This document shows, in pieces, positions 2,998 to 36,732 of a DNA stretch of 37,432 bases (within the stretch, counting starts at the first letter, position 1; each line of letters begins with the position of its first letter). Below the pieces are notes generated by a model. It was not told where the DNA came from and made no database searches. It saw only the letters and a list, made by a program, of their open reading frames with translations. Both the position numbers and the translations under genes were made by a program. This DNA comes from a virus (lineage: Duplodnaviria > Heunggongvirae > Uroviricota > Caudoviricetes), in IMG/VR virus record IMGVR_UViG_2724679140_000013. One strand, 5' to 3'.

Positions 2998-3360
2998 ATG
3001 AGCATCGCTATGAATAGAAATGCCACCTCCTCACGTTCTAAATACCGCAACGGGGCGGAACGCCATGCTAACCGTTTCGCTACCAGTGCATCACGCAGCA
3101 GCTCTCGCTACAGCCTGAGCGAAACACACGCAACACCGGATGGCCACGCTGTAAAACAAATCGGCGAGCATGCCTGGCTGATTGAGAAAGCTGGAATCGT
3201 GGTCCATAAATGCCCACGCAATCCGTTTACCGGAAACCGCATTTTTGCATTGAGCTGCGGCGACAATCAATTCGGGCAGGATTTCACATTATACGAAGCA
3301 CTTCGTACGGTTGATCGTCTGCTTCGCGGGCAAAGTTTTATTAAACAGGCTGATTTATAA
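2998..3360 (+). CDS. Hypothetical early protein (120 aa)
   Basis: ORF in the early operon; Ser/Arg-rich N-terminus; no clear SD. Confidence 0.45.
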   Translation: MSIAMNRNATSSRSKYRNGAERHANRFATSASRSSSRYSLSETHATPDGHAVKQIGEHAWLIEKAGIVVHKCPRNPFTGNRIFALSCGDNQFGQDFTLYEALRTVDRLLRGQSFIKQADL

Positions 3361-3370
3361 CAGGTGAGTT

Positions 3371-3658
3371 ATGACCAAAGAGCATACACAAAGTGTATTT
3401 ATCCGTTTTATTGATTTTCGCGGTGAACTGTTATTACGCGCATCCGCTATTGATGGAGTGGCTCCGGCGGGTAAAAACGGAGCCGACGAAGCCACTTACG
3501 TTTATCTGAACGGCACGCGACTGCTTGTGGAACTTCCGTACCAGACCGTACGAGAAATCATTAGTGGAGCTGAAAAGGCACGCCAGGCTAATGGCGATGA
3601 ACCTTATATCGAAATTATTTGTATGGATTCAGAAGCAGAAATTCAGAAAGCAGATTAA
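3371..3658 (+). CDS. Hypothetical early protein (95 aa)
   Basis: SD AGGTGA upstream; tightly packed in the early operon. Confidence 0.6.
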   Translation: MTKEHTQSVFIRFIDFRGELLLRASAIDGVAPAGKNGADEATYVYLNGTRLLVELPYQTVREIISGAEKARQANGDEPYIEIICMDSEAEIQKAD

Positions 3659-3669
3659 AGGGCGTTGCG

Positions 3670-3912
3670 ATGGGCAAAGAATATAAAACTCTCATTAACA
3701 AAGCACTTGAGCGTTTTTATTTTCGCTTAAGTGCATCAGGCGCTCATGCTGAACGTGCAGCCCGTGACTCATTGACCAGGGCAATCCGGAGTCTGTATGA
3801 CGTGGCTTTTTACGCTGATGATCTGGATGCACTTAACGAACTTTCCGAGCTGATCTGTGCCGCAGAATGCGGGGAACATATTGAACCGTATAAGCTGGGG
3901 AATATTGCATGA
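3670..3912 (+). CDS. Hypothetical early protein (80 aa)
   Basis: Start chosen at MGKEYK (ATG 3670, AAAGGG upstream) rather than the 3619 ORF start, which overlaps the previous gene. Confidence 0.5.
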   Translation: MGKEYKTLINKALERFYFRLSASGAHAERAARDSLTRAIRSLYDVAFYADDLDALNELSELICAAECGEHIEPYKLGNIA

Positions 3913-4022
3913 GTATATTTATCTCATGGCTTGTTCTGATTATTTCGGTGGCCTGCGCCATTGGGATTATGCGAATTATTCATTCAGTAAAAAAGATTGA
4001 ACGCTTTTTCACTGGCGAATAA
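3909..4022 (+). CDS. Possible small hydrophobic peptide (37 aa)
   Basis: ATGA start/stop overlap with the preceding ORF; MSIFISWLVLIISVACAIGIMRII is one TM helix; below the ORF-track size cutoff. Confidence 0.35.
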   Translation: MSIFISWLVLIISVACAIGIMRIIHSVKKIERFFTGE

Positions 4023-4108
4023 CAGAGCAAATAAAACCACAGGTTAAATAAGAAAATGTAAAAACAATCCGCATTCGCGGAGGTATTCGCACACGCCAAG
4101 GAGGCGTA

Positions 4109-4312
4109 ATGGCAATTAAGCATTTTCCTGTCGTTCGTTTTACCTCCAGAGGACGTGAATACGAAGTCGACGAACGCCTGATTACCACAATCGACAAACA
4201 CCGTTCAGAAAAGGATGCACATCACATCTATCTCACTGACGGCACTTACTTCTGCGCCACGAATGTGGTGCGGGTGAACCTTATCCGACAGGTACAGGAG
4301 TCACGCAGATGA
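4109..4312 (+). CDS. Hypothetical early protein (67 aa)
   Basis: Strong SD AAGGAGG 5 nt upstream. Confidence 0.6.
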   Translation: MAIKHFPVVRFTSRGREYEVDERLITTIDKHRSEKDAHHIYLTDGTYFCATNVVRVNLIRQVQESRR

Positions 4313-4554
4313 CCATTCTGGACTATATCGCCGCCAATCCGGGGTGTAGCGGTGGAGAAATCGCCGCAGCACTGAATACCCCAACCACAGCCATTAATGC
4401 GGAGTTACGCCGACTCTGGCGCAGCGGTTCAGTCATAAGAAAAGAGCGCAAAACAGGCGGTCGCTTTTCTTACCAGATAAACCCGATGCCGTTCGGGTGC
4501 GGCAATCCACTTACCAACATGTTTAACCAGCTACTGAAGGAGGCCAGAGCATGA
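4309..4554 (+). CDS. Small winged-helix-like DNA-binding protein (81 aa)
   Basis: ATGA overlap with the upstream gene; ILDYIAANPGCSGGEIAAALNTPTTAINAELRRLWRSGSV resembles a wHTH. Confidence 0.55.
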   Translation: MTILDYIAANPGCSGGEIAAALNTPTTAINAELRRLWRSGSVIRKERKTGGRFSYQINPMPFGCGNPLTNMFNQLLKEARA

Positions 4555-4850
4555 GCGCCATCAACCACCAGGAATTACGCGAACTGGCGATTGACCTGCA
4601 ACGAATGGCAACGCATCAAAAATTACTGGCGTTTCGCGCAATGCTCTCGCCGTCTGCCGTGCTGGCACTGCTGGATGAGCTGGAGCACGCCAGAACCATG
4701 TCTCCAGCCATTCGCCTGGCGCTCCATCATGAAATCGCTGATTTCTGCGCTCCACTGGGTTCGCCTGGTGAACCAGAAACGCCGGAAGCAATGCAACGAG
4801 AGCTACTGCAACGCATCGACAAGGTTTTTGATTTCTTCCTTAACCAGTAA
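4551..4850 (+). CDS. Hypothetical early protein (99 aa)
   Basis: Overlapping start/stop with the upstream gene; helical, acidic. Confidence 0.55.
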   Translation: MSAINHQELRELAIDLQRMATHQKLLAFRAMLSPSAVLALLDELEHARTMSPAIRLALHHEIADFCAPLGSPGEPETPEAMQRELLQRIDKVFDFFLNQ

Positions 4851-4861
4851 AGGACCGCGAT

Positions 4862-5065
4862 ATGAACAAAAAGACCTGGTTTCGCGCATACATGTGGGCG
4901 CTGGTATGCGTCCTCGTTTCTCTCATTCTGTATGCAGGACTACTCCCCCGAATGATTTCATCAGACAGCTCCTTCTTGGTATTGCTGGGCATTTTCATTG
5001 CCATGCTGTACCCGGCAGGCGTTGTTCGCCTTTTCAGTAAGTACATCAAGGAAATCAAACAATGA
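4862..5065 (+). CDS. Small two-TM membrane protein coupled to the SPFH gene
   Basis: 67 aa; two hydrophobic helices (WALVCVLVSLILYAGLL, FLVLLGIFIAMLYPAGVV); ATGA overlap with the next gene. Confidence 0.6.
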   Translation: MNKKTWFRAYMWALVCVLVSLILYAGLLPRMISSDSSFLVLLGIFIAMLYPAGVVRLFSKYIKEIKQ

Positions 5066-5892
5066 AGAAACTCAAACTCTTTCAGATTATCCCGCTTTTT
5101 GCCGCCATCCTGCTGGTTGGTTGCGATCGCGTTGAGCCAGGTAATGTGGGCATCAAAGTCAACAAACTGGGCGACGACAAAGGCGTCGGTGAAGTGGTTG
5201 GCGTTGGCCGCTACTGGACAGGCTGGAATACAGAGGTTTACATCTTCCCGACCTTCAAACAAATGAAGACCTACGATGAGCCGTTCAGCTTTCAGATGAG
5301 TGACGGCACAACCATCGGCTATCACATCGGTGTGGCCTACAAGGTTGATCCATCCAAAGTTACTACAGTGTTTCAGACCTACCGCAAAGGCGTGGACGAC
5401 ATTACCGACACTGACCTGCGCCAGAAGATCGCCGATGCACTCAACCGACTGGCCAGCAAAATGACCACCGATAAATTCATCGACGGTGGCAAGTCTGAAC
5501 TGCTGGATTCAGCACTTAAAGATATTCAGGAAGAGATGACCCCCATCGGTATTCAGGTCATGAGCCTCTCTTATGTCGGTAAACCGGAATATCCGCCAAC
5601 CGTTATCGACAGCATTAACGCCAAAGTCACGGCAAACCAGAAAACCCTGCAACGCGAACAGGAAGTCAAGCAACGCGAAGCAGAAGCCAACATGTTGCGC
5701 GCAGAAGCTGCCGGACAGGCTGATGCCATTCGCACAAAAGCCCAGGCTGAAGCCGACGCCATTCGTTTACGCGGTGAAGCTCTGCGCCAGAATCCCGGCG
5801 TTATGGAGCTGGAAGCAATCAACAAATGGAACGGCACGCTGCCGCAATACATGACCAGCAATACCGCTGTTCCGTTTGTTCCGGTGAAGTAA
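5062..5892 (+). CDS. SPFH/band-7 (prohibitin/flotillin-like) lipoprotein
   Basis: 276 aa; lipobox LLVGC; SPFH core followed by an Ala/Glu/Arg-rich coiled coil (QREQEVKQREAEANMLRAEAAGQADAIRTKAQAEADAIRLRGEA). Confidence 0.85.
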   Translation: MKKLKLFQIIPLFAAILLVGCDRVEPGNVGIKVNKLGDDKGVGEVVGVGRYWTGWNTEVYIFPTFKQMKTYDEPFSFQMSDGTTIGYHIGVAYKVDPSKVTTVFQTYRKGVDDITDTDLRQKIADALNRLASKMTTDKFIDGGKSELLDSALKDIQEEMTPIGIQVMSLSYVGKPEYPPTVIDSINAKVTANQKTLQREQEVKQREAEANMLRAEAAGQADAIRTKAQAEADAIRLRGEALRQNPGVMELEAINKWNGTLPQYMTSNTAVPFVPVK

Positions 5893-5898
5893 TTAAAC

Positions 5899-5923
5899 CC
5901 GGCCAGTGAAAATCGCTGGCCGG
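5899..5923 (+). terminator. Stem-loop after the SPFH gene (possible terminator)
   Basis: CCGGCCAG-N9-CTGGCCGG; the T-run is displaced (5937-5942), so efficiency is uncertain. Confidence 0.35.
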
Positions 5924-5969
5924 AGCAGTATCAGGATTTTTTAGTATGCCGTTCTCACAAAAAAACCGC

Positions 5970-5999
5970 TTGCCATGCCGCAATCAGTCAGGTTACATT
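5970..5999 (+). promoter_or_regulatory. Candidate sigma-70 promoter reading into the a1b1/c4-like region
   Basis: TTGCCA-N18-TACATT; sequence inspection only. Confidence 0.3.
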
Positions 6000-6030
6000 T
6001 CCGCTGCACCTCATAAAACGGGTGCCGGGA

Positions 6031-6054
6031 TTGGAACCCCGCAGACTAACAGAG
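6031..6054 (+). promoter_or_regulatory. Upstream antisense-RNA target pair (a1b1-like)
   Basis: TTGGAAC (6031-6037) and CTAACAGAG (6046-6054) are exact complements of GTTCCAA (6175-6181) and CTCTGTTAG (6160-6168). Confidence 0.5.
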
Positions 6055-6059
6055 CGCAC

Positions 6060-6080
6060 AACCGCGCCAGCGGTTTTTTT
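6060..6080 (+). terminator. Intrinsic terminator directly after a1b1
   Basis: AACCGC-GCCA-GCGGTT followed by a T7 run. Confidence 0.55.
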
Positions 6081-6121
6081 GTGCGTACCGTATCGCCACG
6101 TCTTTTTCGCGTCAAAATTAT

Positions 6122-6200
6122 GGTGGGGCGTACAGGGCCAGCATCAGCTGGGCCGGGTCCTCTGTTAGCCGGTAGTTCCAACCCTGTACGTCTCACCACC
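6122..6200 (+). ncRNA. Candidate c4 / CI-type antisense immunity RNA
   Basis: 16-bp closing stem GGTGGGGCGTACAGGG / CCCTGTACGTCTCACC (two G-U pairs) enclosing hairpins CCAGC-ATCA-GCTGG and GCCGG-loop-CCGGT; the loop carries CCTCTGTTAG (b') and the adjacent single strand carries GTTCCAA (a'); ACC tail after the stem. Confidence 0.55.
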
Positions 6201-6231
6201 CCGAGCTTGGAACCTCTGGATGGTGAGTTTT
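6192..6231 (+). terminator. Terminator/attenuator hairpin overlapping the 3' arm of the c4-like stem
   Basis: CTCACCA (6192-6198) pairs with TGGTGAG (6221-6227), followed by TTTT; mutually exclusive with the 6122-6197 stem; the a2 site lies in its loop. Confidence 0.4.
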
Positions 6232-6252
6232 CAAAACTGACTAACAGAGAGG
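6207..6252 (+). promoter_or_regulatory. Downstream antisense-RNA target pair (a2b2-like) overlapping the SD of the 75-aa ORF
   Basis: TTGGAAC (6207-6213) and CTAACAGAG (6241-6249); SD GAGAGG at 6247-6252, ATG at 6260. Confidence 0.5.
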
Positions 6253-6259
6253 CCACACC

Positions 6260-6487
6260 ATGGCAAACCGCAAACAGCGCGCATACGCTGCGCGTCGTCA
6301 CATCCAGACTGAAATCGACCGCAGACTTTCCCGCGCATTCCGCGTCGCTAAAATCATGCACATCAACATGCTGCATGAGCGTAGCTGCGAACTTTCAAAC
6401 CTCTACTCATCCGCTGTTTTCAGCTATCTGGCGGATGATCTGCGCGAGCTTCAACAGCTCATCCAGCAGCAAAACAAACTCCATTAA
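6260..6487 (+). CDS. Hypothetical 75-aa protein; position analogous to P1 icd
   Basis: SD GAGAGG 7 nt upstream; basic N-terminus, helical C-terminus; first ORF after the a2b2 site. Confidence 0.6.
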   Translation: MANRKQRAYAARRHIQTEIDRRLSRAFRVAKIMHINMLHERSCELSNLYSSAVFSYLADDLRELQQLIQQQNKLH

Positions 6488-6559
6488 TTCCTGTTCCGGG
6501 CCTTTCCTGCACCTTGCGGCGGGAGGCCTTCGCACATCTGTAACAAGAGGATTGCCGCA

Positions 6560-6925
6560 ATGATTCTCGCCAACGACTTTCTTGAATACCTGCTCAACAC
6601 AGAACGTGATCTTGCCGCTCGCGTGCGTGATCGTTATGACATGTACCTGAAATCCCTGCCTGTACCGCAACTCGCTGACGGAAAAATTGTTATTGATGGT
6701 CGCTACATGATTGACAGCCACGAGGGAAATTACAGGCTTTACCGCATTGAAGGTGGCACCCCGTCCGTTATTGGCATTTACCAGCGCCCATCCTCTGCAA
6801 TCGTCGATGTGATTGCCGACAGCATCCGCATCACACATCGCCATGCCGACACAGAAGACACCGTGCTGGAAATTCAGCGGCTGGCTGCCGTCTGCCGCGA
6901 CACCCTGAATGGCATGACGAAGTAA
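6560..6925 (+). CDS. Hypothetical 121-aa protein upstream of A
   Basis: SD AGAGGA; ends 6 nt before gene A. Confidence 0.6.
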   Translation: MILANDFLEYLLNTERDLAARVRDRYDMYLKSLPVPQLADGKIVIDGRYMIDSHEGNYRLYRIEGGTPSVIGIYQRPSSAIVDVIADSIRITHRHADTEDTVLEIQRLAAVCRDTLNGMTK

Positions 6926-6931
6926 ATCACT

Positions 6932-9754
6932 ATGACGGCAGAGTACATCAGGGACTGGCAACAGCCGCGCCACGCAGTGGGACGTGAAGGAACGGGGATC
7001 CCCGTTCCTGAATCCGCGCTTTCCTCCTGGCTGGATGCCTACCGGGCAGAGAACGAGCGCCGCCAGGAAATGGCTGATGCGGCGTTCTCCGCCACGCCGC
7101 TGGGCAACCTGATTAATAAAAGCCTGGATGCACAGGAAAAACAGGACAAAACCATCACACTGGCAGGAGACGCCAGAAAACAGGTACGCGGTGCGGTGGA
7201 TGAAGCCATGGCCTCGCTGCGCCTGCTGCCGTCCTATCTGCGCGATCCGCTTATTCGCCACCTCTCCTTCCTGCGCAAAAAACAGGAAGCCGATCGCCGG
7301 AAAGGCAAAAAGAGCTGGCAGGCTGAACGCTACGCGCGCGGAACCCTGCGCAAAATATTCGAACGTCTGGACCGCACCGACCACCGCTGGCTGACACCGG
7401 GTTATCGCTCCCTTGCCGGACGCGAACGCCTGGATGATTTGCTTTACCTGCCGCAGCTCAACAAGCACCAGATACAGACGCTGGCCACCATGACGGCGGC
7501 GATGTTCAGCAGCACCTTCGAAAAACTCTGCGATGGCTTTGGCGCGACTGATGGCGAGCTGACCATGGAGGTAACGCTGAAGGCGTATCAGATGCTGGCC
7601 CGCATGGCGTTACACCTGCACGCCATGCCTCCGCATTATGACGCACTGACAACAGACAAAGACCGGAGGAACGAACCGGACACGGAGTTGCTGCCGGGCG
7701 CAATCCTTCGCCTGACCTGTGCGGAATGGTGGAAACGCAAACTGTGGCTGTTACGTTGCGAGTGGCGGGAAGAACAACTCCGCGCCGCCTGTCTGGTTTC
7801 CAGAAAAACATCGCCCTATCTGAGCCAGGACGCGTTAAGCGAGTTTCGAGCACAGCGCGAGAAAACACGCGATTTCCTGAAAAGTTTCATGCTGGAAAAC
7901 GAAGACGGGTTCACGATTGATCTCGAGACGGTGTATTACGCGGGAGTAAGTAATCCGGTTCATCGTAAGGCAGAAATGATGGCCACCATGAAGGGGCTGG
8001 AACTTCTGGCCGAAGCCCGTGGCGACAAAGCGGTGTTTCTGACTGTCACCTGCCCGTCAAAATACCACGCCACAACAGAGAACGGTCATCCGAATCCCAA
8101 ATGGAACGGGGCCACCATGCGCGACTCCAGCGATTACCTGGTTAACACGTTTTTTGCGGCGGTCCGCAAGAAACTGAACCGCGACGGCCTGCGCTGGTAT
8201 GGCATCCGCACGGTGGAGCCTCACCATGACGGCACCGTGCACTGGCATATGATGGTCTTTGCTCATCCGGAAGAAATCGACACCATTGTGTCCCACACCC
8301 GCGATATTGCCATTCAGGAAGATCGTCACGAGCTGGGTGATGATATTACCCCACGCTTTAAGGCGGAGTACGTCGACGGCTCAAAAGGCACACCGACCAG
8401 CTACATCGCCACCTACATCGGGAAAAACCTGGACAGCCGTGCCGTGGATGGCATCGACCCGAAAACGGGCAAGCCACGCGTTGACCACGAAACCGGAAAA
8501 TCAATGGCCGAGAGCGTGGAACGCGCCATCGGCTGGGCGCGCCTTCACCGGGTCCGCCAGTTCCAGTTCTTTGGTATCCCCTCCCGTCAGGTGTGGCGTG
8601 AACTGCGCCGCCTTGCCAGCCAGATGGCTCGCAACCCGGAAGGACCGCAACGGCTGAAGGATGACGCAATGGACGCGGTTCTTGCTTCCGCTGATGCCGG
8701 ATGTTTTGCCACCTACATAGAGAAACAGGGCGGCGTACTTGTTCCACGCAAGGACTACCTGATTCGCACCGCCTACGACCTCGCAGATGAGCTGAACGAT
8801 TACGGTGAACAGAGCGTACAGATTTACGGGATCTGGTCACCGCTCATCGGGGAGTCTTCCCGCGTATGCACGCATCCGGACAACTGGAAGCTGGTAAGAC
8901 GCAAACCGGAAGCGGAAGACAGCGCCCGCGAAAATGGTTTTGACCTTCAGGGCGGCCCTGCCGCCCCTTGGACTCGTGGCAATAACTGTCCCCGTATACA
9001 GGAAACGGGCAACAACGGGACAGAACAGCCGGAAGAACGGCCAGCACCGTGGCCGCAGCTTCCTGACGGCGTTGACGTGAATGAATGGATGCGCTCACTG
9101 AAACGGCACGAACACCGGGCGCTGATGCGTTCGCTGCGTGACAAACAGGCAAAAAACAGCAGTGATGAAATGCAGAACTGGACACAGAGCCGCAAACAGC
9201 CACAGCCTTTGCCTGATAACCACGAGTTACTCGCTAAAGAATGGCGGGAGTCTGCTGAATCTCTCGGCCTGCATATCGGTGAACAGCAGATGCAGCACCT
9301 GTTACGGGGCGGCAGTCTGTACGTTGACGGCAGCATCATTGCACCGCAGGGATTTGAAATTGTACGCAAACCGGATACCCGCCCGGACAGCCGAATCACG
9401 CAGCTCTGGCAGCGCCTGAGCCGTAACCACGGCGTAAGCAGCACGGAGATCCGCCATAACCCGGTCGCCAGCTATCTGGAACAGCTGGGGGCATCAGACC
9501 CCGAAGCCGCCGCACGCCTGGCATCCACACTTCAGCAAGACCAGAACACCATGAAAACACCCGTTACCGTGCTTTCTGACATGCTGCGCGCCATCCGCGA
9601 CGCAGAGCACGCACAGAGAATCAGTGAAACCACTGAACGCGCCCGCCGCAAAGCAGACCTGCTGCGGGGTGGCCTGACCAGTGGAAACAAAAAACAGACA
9701 GAAACGGGATTCACAAATCCCGTAAATGAGCAAAAAACGCGCCGCGATATATGA
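6932..9754 (+). CDS. A: Rolling-circle replication initiation endonuclease (P2 gpA family), with a long C-terminal extension
   Basis: 940 aa; HUH-type motif HHDGTVHWHMMVF and paired-tyrosine motif SYIATYIGKN as in P2 A. Confidence 0.9.
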   Translation: MTAEYIRDWQQPRHAVGREGTGIPVPESALSSWLDAYRAENERRQEMADAAFSATPLGNLINKSLDAQEKQDKTITLAGDARKQVRGAVDEAMASLRLLPSYLRDPLIRHLSFLRKKQEADRRKGKKSWQAERYARGTLRKIFERLDRTDHRWLTPGYRSLAGRERLDDLLYLPQLNKHQIQTLATMTAAMFSSTFEKLCDGFGATDGELTMEVTLKAYQMLARMALHLHAMPPHYDALTTDKDRRNEPDTELLPGAILRLTCAEWWKRKLWLLRCEWREEQLRAACLVSRKTSPYLSQDALSEFRAQREKTRDFLKSFMLENEDGFTIDLETVYYAGVSNPVHRKAEMMATMKGLELLAEARGDKAVFLTVTCPSKYHATTENGHPNPKWNGATMRDSSDYLVNTFFAAVRKKLNRDGLRWYGIRTVEPHHDGTVHWHMMVFAHPEEIDTIVSHTRDIAIQEDRHELGDDITPRFKAEYVDGSKGTPTSYIATYIGKNLDSRAVDGIDPKTGKPRVDHETGKSMAESVERAIGWARLHRVRQFQFFGIPSRQVWRELRRLASQMARNPEGPQRLKDDAMDAVLASADAGCFATYIEKQGGVLVPRKDYLIRTAYDLADELNDYGEQSVQIYGIWSPLIGESSRVCTHPDNWKLVRRKPEAEDSARENGFDLQGGPAAPWTRGNNCPRIQETGNNGTEQPEERPAPWPQLPDGVDVNEWMRSLKRHEHRALMRSLRDKQAKNSSDEMQNWTQSRKQPQPLPDNHELLAKEWRESAESLGLHIGEQQMQHLLRGGSLYVDGSIIAPQGFEIVRKPDTRPDSRITQLWQRLSRNHGVSSTEIRHNPVASYLEQLGASDPEAAARLASTLQQDQNTMKTPVTVLSDMLRAIRDAEHAQRISETTERARRKADLLRGGLTSGNKKQTETGFTNPVNEQKTRRDI

Positions 9755-9804
9755 AGCGCGCATAAAACAGGCAAAAACGGGATTTCAGAATCCCGTAAAC
9801 GATT
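9688..9804. repeat. Two copies of a ~42-bp repeat, each containing a perfect 20-bp palindrome; candidate parC centromere/operator
   Basis: ACGGGATT-CACA-AATCCCGT (9704-9723, inside the 3' end of A) and ACGGGATT-TCAG-AATCCCGT (9777-9796); 73 bp centre to centre; flanks AAAACAGRCARAA and AAAYGA also repeated; immediately upstream of parM. Confidence 0.5.
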
Positions 9805-9830
9805 AATTAATCAACATAAGGAAAAGCGAC

Positions 9831-10790
9831 ATGAAAATTTGTATCGATGACGGCTCCACCAACATCAAGCTGGCATGGACTGAGAACGGCGAACGCCGCA
9901 ACGCCATCAGCCCGAACAGCTTCAAGTCGGAATGGTCTGCGCCGTTCGGTGGAACGCAGCCCGCAAACTACATGCTTGATGGCGTGCGCTATGGTTTTGA
10001 TCCGGTCAGCGATCGCTTTGTCCAGACGACCGACACGCAATACCAGTACAGCGATGTGAATGTCATTGCCATTCATCACGCGCTGGTCAAATCAGGCATC
10101 ACACCACAGGAAGTGGATGTGGTTGTCACCCTGCCACTGAGCGAATATTTCGACACCAACGCACAGCCGGACATGGCCAACATCAACCGCAAAAAAGCAA
10201 ACGTCATGCGCCCGGTGGCGTACCAGAACGGAAAAGCATTCACTATCCGTAACGTACGGGTTATGCCTGAATCCATTCCGGCTGGTTTTAAAGCACTGGC
10301 TGACATGAGTCCGTTTGAATCCCTGCTGATTGTGGATTTAGGCGGAACCACGCTGGATGTGGCAAAGGTTCAGGGACAACTGGCAGGTATCAGCCAGGTG
10401 TTTTGCGATCCACACGTAGGCGTTTCCCTGATGGCCGATGCCGTACTGTCGGTGATGGCCACTAACGGTATGCGTACCAGTCACCACATCGCCAATACCA
10501 TTATCGAACATCGCCATGATGAAGCCTGGCTGCGCCAGCACATCCACAATGACGCGCATTACGCCAGCCTGATGGCGGTTATTCGTGAAAAGGAAGAAAC
10601 ACTGAAACAACGCGTGATCCGCGCGCTGGCGGGTTTTTCGGGTTACGGGCGGGTGATGGTTGTCGGTGGAGGGGCGGAGATTGTGGCACCCGCTATCCGC
10701 GAAGCCTGCGGAGTTAATGCGACTTTCATCGCGGACGGGGTGCCACAGTTTGCTCTGGTTAACGGGCTGTACGCAATGGACAAGGAGTAA
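9831..10790 (+). CDS. parM: Actin-like plasmid segregation ATPase ParM/StbA
   Basis: 319 aa; collinear with plasmid R1 ParM as I recall it (MKICIDDGSTNIKLAW, ISPNSFKSEW, YQYSDVNVIAIHHAL, VMPESIPAG, LIVDLGGTTLDV, VMVVGGGAE). Confidence 0.9.
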   Translation: MKICIDDGSTNIKLAWTENGERRNAISPNSFKSEWSAPFGGTQPANYMLDGVRYGFDPVSDRFVQTTDTQYQYSDVNVIAIHHALVKSGITPQEVDVVVTLPLSEYFDTNAQPDMANINRKKANVMRPVAYQNGKAFTIRNVRVMPESIPAGFKALADMSPFESLLIVDLGGTTLDVAKVQGQLAGISQVFCDPHVGVSLMADAVLSVMATNGMRTSHHIANTIIEHRHDEAWLRQHIHNDAHYASLMAVIREKEETLKQRVIRALAGFSGYGRVMVVGGGAEIVAPAIREACGVNATFIADGVPQFALVNGLYAMDKE

Positions 10791-10794
10791 ACCA

Positions 10795-11109
10795 ATGACG
10801 ACACCAACCAGACGGATAAGTTTCTATCTGAAGCCAGCTGCAGTCAAGAGTGAACGGGAAGCGTGTAATTATCTCGACAGCCTGCCAGCCTCCGAACGCA
10901 GCCGCGCGCAACGCGCGGCATTTCTGGCTGGACTGGCACTCATTAAAAACGATCCTGCCTTTGCTTACTGGCTGGCTGAATGGTCAGAGGGGGAAAATAT
11001 GCCTGCCAACAATCACATATGGGGCTGGCATAACAGCGAGCCTGTTGGTTGCAAAAATCAGAATATAAGTCAAATAAAAAAGAATATTCAGGAATTTTTT
11101 CCTGAATGA
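10795..11109 (+). CDS. parR: ParR-like centromere-binding adaptor (RHH)
   Basis: 104 aa; SD AGGAG; RRISFYLKP...LDSLPASERSRAQRAAFLAGLALIKNDP parallels the R1 ParR N-terminal domain; directly downstream of parM. Confidence 0.75.
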   Translation: MTTPTRRISFYLKPAAVKSEREACNYLDSLPASERSRAQRAAFLAGLALIKNDPAFAYWLAEWSEGENMPANNHIWGWHNSEPVGCKNQNISQIKKNIQEFFPE

Positions 11110-36429: not shown

Positions 36430-36516
36430 TGGTACCCGGAGCGGGACTTGAACCCGCACAGCGCGAACGCCGAGGGATTTTAAATCCCTTGTGTCTACCG
36501 ATTCCACCATCCGGGC
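36430..36516 (-). tRNA. leuZ: tRNA-Leu (anticodon UAA)
   Basis: 87-nt reverse complement GCCCGGATGGTGGAATCGGTAGACACAAGGGATTTAAAATCCC...GGGTACCA; cloverleaf with long variable arm and encoded CCA. Confidence 0.95.
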
Positions 36517-36528
36517 TCGGGAAGAAAG

Positions 36529-36602
36529 TGGAGGCGCGTTCCGGAGTCGAACCGGACTAGACGGATTTGCAATCCGCTACATAACCGCTTTGTTAACGCG
36601 CC
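36529..36602 (-). tRNA. cysT: tRNA-Cys (anticodon GCA)
   Basis: 74-nt reverse complement GGCGCGTTAACAAAGCGGTTATGTAGCGGATTGCAAATCCGTC...CGCGCCTCCA. Confidence 0.95.
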
Positions 36603-36656
36603 AAATTCTTCAGGCCTTTCAGCCAGACATCCGCTTGACGCCGATGTCTTTTAAAC

Positions 36657-36732
<76 letters not shown>

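Follow-up and report, generated by a model that had tools for sequence, protein, structure and literature searches.

A covarying hairpin that is an alternative to the closing stem of a C4-type antisense RNA in a P88-like prophage

This study concerns a short leader region in a 37,432-nucleotide (nt) stretch of viral DNA, IMG/VR record IMGVR_UViG_2724679140_000013 (referred to as the window), in which an IsrK/seqA-like RNA element, a C4/CI-type antisense RNA and a hairpin termed T2 lie in succession upstream of a homologue of the phage P4 epsilon gene. The source context of the 37.4-kb window is a P88-like prophage (Xuanwuvirus, P2-type). When compared with phage P88 by BLAST, the region 5850-6600 was 91% identical, and the window at 3045-10983 was 95% identical; the P88 annotation lists the integrase, the C repressor and cox, followed by the rightward early operon. 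As shown in Table 1, both RNA elements matched their Rfam models at full length, and the IsrK element ends in a hairpin followed by a U-run (T1). Downstream of these RNAs lie a 75-amino-acid (75-aa) open reading frame (ORF), which was 33% identical to P4 epsilon (P4 positions 7888-8175) over 51 aa (E = 6e-9), a 121-aa ORF and a replication gene. The genes are ordered as in the P4 left operon, except that here P2 gpA fills the place of the replication gene. In addition, P4 epsilon derepresses the P2 helper, and here a P2-type phage carries an epsilon-like gene of its own under C4 control.

The initial annotation of this DNA had placed two hairpins around a C4-like RNA and had likened the arrangement to that of P4. 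Both proposals were borne out, inasmuch as Rfam searches and folding identified a genuine C4-type antisense RNA between the hairpins, and the P4 locus itself contained the isrK and C4 matches (P4 positions 8692-8615 and then 8507-8420), so that the analogy is one of homology. We also searched 16 loci from lambdoid/Stx, Klebsiella and Salmonella phages, the P1-like phage RCS47 and satellite phage P4; an isrK match followed by a C4 match, each above the gathering score, was found in 16 of 16. Since the same pair occurs in all of these loci, the architecture here matches the P4 immunity leader. The equivalence of IsrK with seqA, and of C4 with CI RNA, has been stated in the literature (PMC3632133, PMC4825925). 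Judged from these sequence matches, the likeness in architecture to the P4 immunity leader, and likewise to the Gifsy-1 isrK locus, reflects homology rather than analogy alone.

The boxes through which such RNAs pair were readily located. The a box, TTGGAAC, occurs at 6031 (a1) and 6207 (a2), with its complement GTTCCAA at 6175 (a'), and the b box, CTAACAGAG, occurs at 6046 (b1) and 6241 (b2), with its complement CTCTGTTAG at 6160 (b'). The C4 RNA therefore exposes two boxes that are complementary to a1/b1 upstream and to a2/b2 over the downstream ribosome-binding site, as do the a' and b' boxes of C4 in the immI region (c4, icd, ant) of P1 and P7. Among near-identical P88-like phages, a1/a'/a2 and b1/b'/b2 were found to change jointly, as judged by eye in an alignment of close relatives. 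When column covariation was counted for a':a2 and b':b2 in a more diverse alignment, slid controls scored as high as the structure, MAFFT having misregistered the hypervariable boxes. It is established that the specificities of P1 and P7 shifted by co-variation of the boxes; the joint changes among P88-like phages give many apparent immunity specificities, on a larger scale than P1 versus P7.

Table 1. Positions in the window of the leader elements and of the genes that follow them
Feature	Position	Strand	Description
Left arm of inverted repeat	5956..5970	+	CACAAAAAAACCGCT; complements T1 3' arm, U-run and GUG; also codons 4-8 of the leader ORF
205-codon leader ORF	5946..6563	+	Frame 0 through the left repeat arm, T1, C4 and T2; stop overlaps the ATG of the 121-aa ORF (ATGA)
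Sigma-70-like promoter	5970..5999	+	-35 TTGCCA (5970-5975), 18-nt spacer, TACATT; or 17-nt spacer, TTACAT
IsrK/seqA-like element	6006..6080	+	Rfam RF01394, full length 1-77, 72.4 bits (gathering score 50)
Hairpin 1 of IsrK element	6006-6025	+	RF01394 match, folding
Hairpin 2 of IsrK element	6026-6041	+	a1 (6031-6037) in 8-nt loop
b1 box	6046-6054	+	Single-stranded, just upstream of T1
T1	6060-6075 (hairpin), U7 to 6080	+	AACCGC-GCCA-GCGGTT-T7; terminator scan; terminal hairpin of isrK model
Right arm of inverted repeat	6069..6083	+	Last loop base, T1 3' arm, U7 run, GUG
C4/CI-type antisense RNA	6116..6203	+	Rfam RF01695, full length, 78.5 bits (gathering score 45)
C4 closing stem	6121-6137/6182-6198	+	RF01695 match, folding
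b' box	6160-6168	+	In C4 hairpin loop; sequence and fold
a' box	6175-6181	+	Single-stranded in C4; sequence and fold
T2 hairpin	6192..6231	+	Outer helix 6192-6198/6221-6227 (CTCACCA/TGGTGAG); local free energy -16.1
T2 inner GAG/CUC helix	6203-6205/6214-6216	+	8-nt apical loop CUUGGAAC with a2
T2 tail UUUU	6228-6231	+	TTTTC after 3' arm
b2 target box	6241-6249	+	Overlaps ribosome-binding site GAGAGG of 75-aa ORF; AUG at 6260
75-aa ORF, the regulated gene	6260..6487	+	Homologue of P4 epsilon derepression protein; PF25738, 28.4 bits (cutoff 27)
121-aa ORF	6560-6925	+	Downstream of T1 and T2
Replication gene A	6932-9754	+	P2 gpA type; PF05840 Phage_GPA, E = 1e-131

T2 had first been drawn from the complementarity of CTCACCA (6192-6198) with TGGTGAG (6221-6227) ahead of TTTT, and from its overlap with the 3' arm of the C4 closing stem. 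The complementarity is exact, and the a2 box (6207-6213) does lie inside the T2 loop. The strand shared with the closing stem was also confirmed, with the correction that all 7 nt (6192-6198) are common to the two helices rather than 6. A 7-nt complement says little when a single sequence is considered; that the helix goes beyond chance was shown by covariation among homologues. For this analysis, the C4 RNA and the following ~85 nt were aligned by MAFFT from 78 distinct modules, which comprised P88-like phages, the 16 loci described above and viral contigs found through a conserved ribosome-binding-site/start motif, a selection that was blind to the T2 3' arm. As measured in this alignment (columns 82-88/114-120), 98.0% of the 546 cells of the T2 helix were paired, compared with 85.1 +/- 0.8% after shuffling. 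Changes on both sides were found in 6 of the 7 pairs, and the number of doubly changed cells was 91, compared with 26.5 +/- 4.3 in the shuffled controls. When the T2 partner was slid by 1-3 columns, pairing was 28-67%.

Altogether, 19 distinct T2 helices were observed, each with at least 6 of 7 pairs (e.g., CUCACCA/UGGUGAG here and CCACCGC/GCGGUGG in Stx phage F004). The same type of helix was present in P4 on the 3' strand of CI (GCUAUCGCC/GGCGAUAGC), again with the first target box in its loop, and in the P1-like phage RCS47 (GCUACCGC/GCGGUAGC), together with isrK and C4. The C4 fold itself was paired in 99.9% of cells over the 78 homologues, with compensatory changes at 14 pairs. Covariation was thus strong in both helices, which are mutually exclusive, as had been proposed; because both use 6192-6198, T2 and the closing stem are true alternatives. 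When the shared strand changes, the T2 partner compensates by Watson-Crick pairing, whereas the C4 5' strand mostly tolerates G-U. Moreover, each of a1 and a2 is exposed in an 8-nt loop that caps a short, G+C-rich stem (GGG-AUUGGAAC-CCC and GAG-CUUGGAAC-CUC, respectively). Taken together, T2 is a strongly conserved, family-wide alternative to the C4 closing stem.

Given that the T2 5' arm lies wholly within mature C4, T2 can exist only in nascent or unprocessed RNA, and any role it has must be exerted during transcription or on the precursor. Leader transcripts of several lengths were examined by minimum-energy folding. In the fold of transcript 6006-6240 (-95.1 kcal/mol), a1 and b1 were paired in cis with a' and b', none of the 17 pairs of the C4 stem was formed, and all 7 pairs of T2 were present. 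For transcripts 6006-6203 and 6006-6275, the C4 fold was the minimum-energy structure, and the forced cis-paired alternative cost +5.4 kcal/mol at each length. When transcripts ending 13 nt past T2 were folded, the T2 state had the lowest energy in 12 of the 13 lineages that could be evaluated, P4 and the P1-like phage among them; four of the 17 lineages were left out, as local folding had chosen a wrong small helix in them. In the T2-containing fold, the spacer after T1 (GUGCGUACCGUAU, 6081-6093) was paired with the C4 5' strand (6120-6133). This last pairing corresponds to 'hairpin d-I' of Gifsy-1. Experiments on Gifsy-1 demonstrated two alternative structures, A and B, involving cis pairing of the central part of IsrK with the C4 region (PMC4825925); here, the same pairing is a prediction. 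From these folds, we infer that the leader is bistable, with a C4-cloverleaf state and a cis-paired T2 state.

Such a leader might operate as follows. Transcription from the promoter-like site at 5970-5999 would first yield an IsrK/seqA-like RNA that displays a1/b1 and ends at T1, and read-through of T1 would add the C4/CI RNA and then a2/b2 over the ribosome-binding site of the 75-aa ORF. In one fold, the C4 cloverleaf would form and could mature into an antisense RNA of ~78 nt (6121-6198), with T2 off. In the other, a1/b1 would pair in cis with a'/b' ('structure A') while the spacer holds the C4 5' strand; the freed C4 3' strand would build T2 with a2 in its apical loop, and polymerase would meet a weak U-tract. 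In this lineage, as in P4, T2 would then terminate or pause transcription conditionally. Because b' and a' are synthesized ahead of the C4 3' strand, their cis pairing with a1/b1 may pre-empt the closing stem. T1 would limit transcripts from the module promoter, and the pairing of C4 with a1/b1 and a2/b2 would add repression as in P4 and P1. On balance, we consider it rather probable that a P4/P1-type antisense-RNA immunity module within a P88-like early operon has its leader here, that the leader is bistable, and that T2 serves as a conditional terminator or pause.

Several observations weigh against this reading, most of them concerning the T2 tail. The tail here (UUUUCAAAA) has 4 U, those of close relatives are interrupted (TATCC, TATTC, TTATC), and those of other lineages (UUAACC, UCCUUAAC, GUAACCUG, GUUAUUUGC and even GAAAAAAAC) are in many cases not U-rich. 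In the P1-like module, for example, the helix is followed by UCCUUAAC with no U-tract, unlike the UUUUC found here. Since the U-tail varies across the family, intrinsic termination cannot be the conserved function of T2. The loop of the outer helix (22 nt, the apical loop being 8 nt once the inner GAG/CUC helix is included) and the 4 U of the tail also fall outside the canonical range for an intrinsic terminator (loop of 3-8 nt, about 5 or more U in 8 nt), and T2 was absent from the listing of the consensus terminator scan. Furthermore, folds computed by minimum energy take no account of folding kinetics, RNase P processing, Hfq or ribosomes, and the 15-nt inverted repeat described below is non-random yet without demonstrated function. 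A last point concerns P4, in which Briani and co-workers reportedly described in 2000 an atypical Rho-independent terminator, t4, between cI and timm. A covarying helix occupies, in P4 (nt 8376-8431) as here, the place where t4 would stand, between the antisense RNA gene and the Rho-dependent site farther on, and we take t4 to coincide with this T2-type hairpin, an assumption on the mapping that is ours. Of the proposal that T2 is a terminator, the covarying hairpin stands; with its unconserved U4 tail, T2 would be at best a weak or conditional one.

The same tails raise the possibility that T2 is not a terminator but a switch in folding, maturation or translation, which would capture the C4 3' strand, keep the RNase P substrate and hence mature C4 from forming, free the AUG at 6120 and display a2. 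That the helix covaries family-wide and the U-tail (UCCUUAAC, UUAACC, GUAACCUG, GAAAAAAAC) does not would fit such a role, as would the confinement of T2 to the precursor and the like presentation of a1 and a2 in 8-nt loops. The AUG (6120-6122, in the C4 5' arm) was invariant in 78 of 78 aligned sequences. Set against this, the tails are still enriched in U, most of them holding 3-5 U in 8 nt, and P4 is said to have its t4 terminator just where the T2-type hairpin sits. The roles of switch and terminator are also not exclusive. We regard T2 acting purely as a switch as unlikely, though worth keeping in view, and prefer the conditional terminator or pause.

Transcription of the module was considered next to these structures. 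The candidate promoter at 5970-5999 was the sole promoter-like site found within 5000-7500 by a consensus scan; its -10 hexamer ends 7 nt before 6006, and the predicted start (~6006) is position 1 of the isrK model. Hexamers resembling -35 and -10 elements were equally distant from isrK position 1 in 16 of 16 homologues, including the P4 locus, where the promoter PLE presumably lies at the matching place. T1 was confirmed with the coordinates and sequence that the initial annotation had given, and the consensus scan listed it as a canonical intrinsic terminator. It has the G+C-rich hairpin and U-run expected at the end of isrK, stands directly before C4 with a 35-nt spacer, and corresponds to P4 t1 in being a typical Rho-independent terminator located after the promoter and seqA and ahead of the antisense RNA gene. 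In every homologue examined, the T1 counterpart is followed by a run of at least 5 T; the P4 counterpart is GACGCGCCACGCGTC-U7. For Gifsy-1, read-through of the IsrK terminator, the homologue of T1, was shown experimentally (PMC4825925). As no other promoter-like site was found up to 7500 to serve the downstream gene A, some bypass of T1 is needed in lytic growth.

One candidate for this bypass was an upstream sequence that could replace the T1 hairpin by long-range pairing. It had been noted that 5959-5970 (AAAAAAACCGCT) is the exact reverse complement of 6069-6080; this is so, and the match is even longer, being perfect over 15 nt (5956-5970/6069-6083). A search of the window for perfect inverted repeats (12 nt or longer, spacer up to 150 nt) gave this one and a single other, and 6 inverted-repeat seeds of 12 nt were observed, compared with a mean of 0.49 in shuffles. 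The duplex energy of the upstream arm (hereafter the box) with T1 was -20.8 kcal/mol, compared with -8.8 +/- 1.8 for shuffled upstream sequence. The 15-nt complement of T1 is therefore non-random. The second perfect repeat of the window (11431-11443/11450-11462; 13 nt with a 6-nt spacer) is terminator-like. As would be expected of an attenuator, the 15-bp helix displaced T1 in the minimum-energy fold of any transcript containing 5956-5970 (-50.3 kcal/mol, compared with -35.5 with the box unpaired), and it was preferred already for RNA ending at 6075.

The distribution of the box was examined in ~80 P88-like relatives from viral contigs, 3 from one-genome-per-species contigs (a very narrow family) and one Citrobacter phage. 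Both arms were invariant in nearly all of these, as was the whole stretch 5956-6030. The variants consisted of one matched A6/T6 indel (in the most divergent relative), one A7/T5 and one broken outer pair, and targeted scans for A6 or A8 variants of the box returned, besides random matches, only the A6/T6 contig from among these relatives (L071, the same as L274). Outside P88-like phages, the box complement was absent from all modules examined (P4, P1-like, lambdoid), in which the longest complement was at most 9 nt and typically 4-6 nt. Being absent outside this lineage and invariant inside it, the long-range helix is not conserved across the family and offers no covariation. One contig, labelled 'Vagococcus sp.' (NZ_JBQPOM010000071.1), carries a typical enterobacterial P88-like module under a Gram-positive name, and it looks like contamination or a mislabelled assembly.

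Were the box an anti-terminator, transcripts from the early promoter would pair it with the T1 3' arm and U-run and read into the 75-aa ORF, the 121-aa ORF and gene A, while transcripts from the module promoter would stop. The perfect, non-random complement and its predicted equilibrium helix speak for this, as do the matched indel, in which A6 is paired with T6, and the need for a bypass ahead of gene A. In relatives with unrelated upstream DNA, moreover, homology starts no more than ~12 nt before the box, at the ATG of the leader ORF (BLAST from 5956), so that the box belongs to the module. However, the box adjoins the -35 of the module promoter on its upstream side; RNA started at this promoter must lack it, and only transcripts with starts farther upstream can include it. 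It is missing from every module that is not P88-like, and its invariance leaves no covariation, with A7/T5 in one relative and a broken outer pair in another. In attenuators of the trp/pyrBI type, the anti-terminator sequesters the terminator 5' arm within the same transcript, whereas the candidate here duplicates the T1 5' arm and would pair with the 3' arm and U-run, and the local hairpin with its 4-nt loop should nucleate first. Seven of the 15 pairs involve the U-run; by the established mechanism of termination, this half would still be inside the polymerase, in the RNA:DNA hybrid, when the decision is made, and the box would be a kinetically poor anti-terminator.

A further point against an anti-terminator is that the A7 run of the box falls at ~-47 to -41 of the module promoter and may also be explained as a proximal UP-element-like tract. 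The consensus of this element, AAAAAARNR, lies at -46 to -38. In this window, a hairpin (5899-5924) and a T-run (5938-5943) also stand between the upstream gene and the box. This hairpin (CCGGCCAG-TGAAAATCG-CTGGCCGG) follows a SPFH/Band-7 cargo gene, with the T6 run 13 nt farther on, and is a non-canonical terminator that could lower transcription entering the module. Replacement of T1 by the long-range helix is thus predicted at equilibrium, as had been proposed, but its use as an anti-terminator would be lineage-specific and depend on a box that stands upstream of the module promoter. The 15-nt complement can act only on transcripts started upstream, from the early promoter Pe, and is probably not the main bypass; a long-range anti-terminator is unproven and, on balance, unlikely, and we would be surprised to see the box act in this way.

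Two other explanations of the box were tried and rejected. As a terminator of the minus strand, it would be preceded on that strand by a stem of just TTGC/GCAA, and no minus-strand gene needs one. The 128 bp at 5956-6083 might also be a small mobile element with terminal inverted repeats, but its right arm is the ancestral IsrK terminator of all lineages.

The repeat might instead have no function as RNA, being a by-product of a promoter A-tract, a terminator U-tract and a historical duplication or recombination joint, or else a site that acts at the DNA level. In agreement with this, it is specific to one lineage and practically coincides with the left border of the sequence held in common with relatives of unrelated upstream DNA, and the box reads like the T1 5' flank (CACAA-CCGC) with five extra A's. 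The near invariance of 5956-6030 throughout also means that conservation of the box is nothing special. Harder to accommodate are the eight non-homopolymer positions (CAC, CCGCT), which match as well (~1.5e-5 by chance at a fixed position), and the matched A6/T6 variant. We hold this explanation to be tenable but somewhat doubtful.

A bypass of T1 by ribosomes would leave the repeat without a role in termination. Transcripts started upstream carry the AUG at 5946 of the 205-codon leader ORF, and translation close behind the polymerase would keep T1 and T2 unfolded and end at the ATGA that overlaps the start of the 121-aa ORF. As in trp/pyrBI-type attenuators, there would then be a leader terminator, a possible alternative helix and a leader ORF whose translation could prevent the hairpin. 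Whatever the upstream context (at least five of these are mutually unrelated), an in-frame ATG preceded the box by 9-12 nt. In 76 of 82 relatives, no stop interrupted the leader frame before the start of the 121-aa ORF, whereas the other two frames closed within 40-125 codons; the same frame was open through the module in P4 and in most lambdoid homologues, and an ORF from the invariant C4 AUG was open for more than 57 codons in 68 of the 78 diverse modules. In addition, the Pfam family Phage_ASH matched residues 17-108 of the leader ORF, exactly the part encoded by the RNA module. Either this family is the translation of a structured RNA, or the leader is truly translated. For Gifsy-1 orf45, which has the matching frame, translation and coupling to the downstream gene were shown (PMC4825925).

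Other observations are less easily fitted to a ribosome-mediated bypass. Conservation of the RNA sequence and common descent may account in part for the open frame, the Shine-Dalgarno sequence before the ATG is weak in several contexts, the leader ORF overlaps the entire 75-aa gene in another frame, and the frame is closed in the P1-like, Klebsiella and some Stx-phage modules. On the supporting side, Forti and co-workers reportedly showed in 1999 that translation of the nested kil/eta genes shields P4 late-promoter transcripts from immunity-specific termination. As far as the frames and homologues indicate, translation of the leader ORF through T1 and T2 would be the better-supported bypass than the long-range helix; taken as a full account, with a repeat that has no role in termination, it seems to us quite possible, if still short of probable. 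The annotation of lambdoid relatives may be noted here. In five lambdoid records (L082, L083, L086, L087 and L088), one long coding sequence, annotated variously as 'Rha protein', 'peptidase', 'transcriptional regulator' or 'antirepressor', starts ~360 nt upstream of isrK and spans both RNAs into the anti-repressor gene, in a frame that is genuinely open. The RNAs themselves were annotated in just one of the records examined (F004).

The elements considered above could also be combined. Pe transcripts, which carry both the box and the leader AUG, would then pass T1, while those from the constitutive module promoter, with neither, would stop there, read-through being dependent on the promoter, and the T2/C4-stem toggle would serve as a family-wide co-transcriptional switch. 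If this were true, the toggle would decide, in P4, P1, lambdoid and P2-like phages, between an antisense repressor and a terminated or silent mRNA. We judge this combination improbable as a whole, and return to the conditional terminator or pause as our preferred reading of T2.

Compared with known systems, the closest likeness is to P4, whose immunity leader has the same order of elements: PLE, seqA, t1, cI/CI RNA, t4, seqC and timm, and then epsilon and alpha. In P4, as here, the a1/b1 (seqA) boxes precede a canonical terminator, a gene of the epsilon type comes first among the regulated genes, and the corresponding reading frame stays open across the leader. The two differ in several ways: here the module resides in a complete P2-type phage, whereas P4 is a satellite; the rolling-circle-type P2 gpA takes the place of the P4 alpha primase; the T1-C4 spacer is 35 nt instead of 107 nt; and P4 lacks the 15-nt upstream complement of T1. 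Dependence of t1 and t4 on the antisense RNA is known only for P4. In P1, icd is reportedly subject to translational repression followed by Rho-dependent termination (Biere and co-workers, 1992). The Gifsy-1 locus (isrK, orf45/STnc1160, anrP) resembles the present one in that the IsrK RNA ends at its own terminator; partial read-through into the C4-like RNA (STnc1160) and the anti-repressor gene, and processing, were shown there (PMC4825925). It differs in its lambdoid host prophage and in the anti-repressor gene downstream, and no upstream complement of the terminator was found in lambdoid modules.

The assignment of isrK and C4 to their families, the terminator after a1/b1 and antisense control in P4 and P1 are already known. 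What is possibly undescribed is the presence of the module with an epsilon homologue ahead of gene A in P88-like phages, and possibly also the family-wide covariation of the T2 helix and the lineage-specific 15-nt repeat; a literature search found no paper on the IsrK/C4 module in P88-like phages.

Two further observations were made outside the leader. Tandem C4-type modules, in two to three complete copies, were found in viral contigs L104 (at 6636 and 7292), L111, L118 (three copies), L153 and L214. Their spacing was 649-659 nt (mostly 656 nt), that in L201 was 383 nt, and box sequences differed between copies; each tandem repeat of 656-659 nt was followed by an ORF of 120 aa (169 aa in L214). 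In the window itself, three tRNA genes are clustered at 36433-36732 on the minus strand, near the window end, where they probably indicate host flanking DNA or the attachment region of the prophage.

In every lineage examined, the T2 helix offers a second partner, itself covarying, to the 3' strand of the C4/CI closing stem. It is a concrete structure to test for the atypical t4 terminator of P4. It also supplies a part of the leader that lies outside the structural model of Gifsy-1 IsrK, in which the RNAs spanned 1-180 nt and ended before the T2 3' arm, so that T2 was not considered. These findings extend a known system to a new host phage and sharpen one mechanistic question, and they do not overturn current understanding. 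With such a module, derepression and replication in P88-like prophages would come under a second layer of control, one based on RNA.

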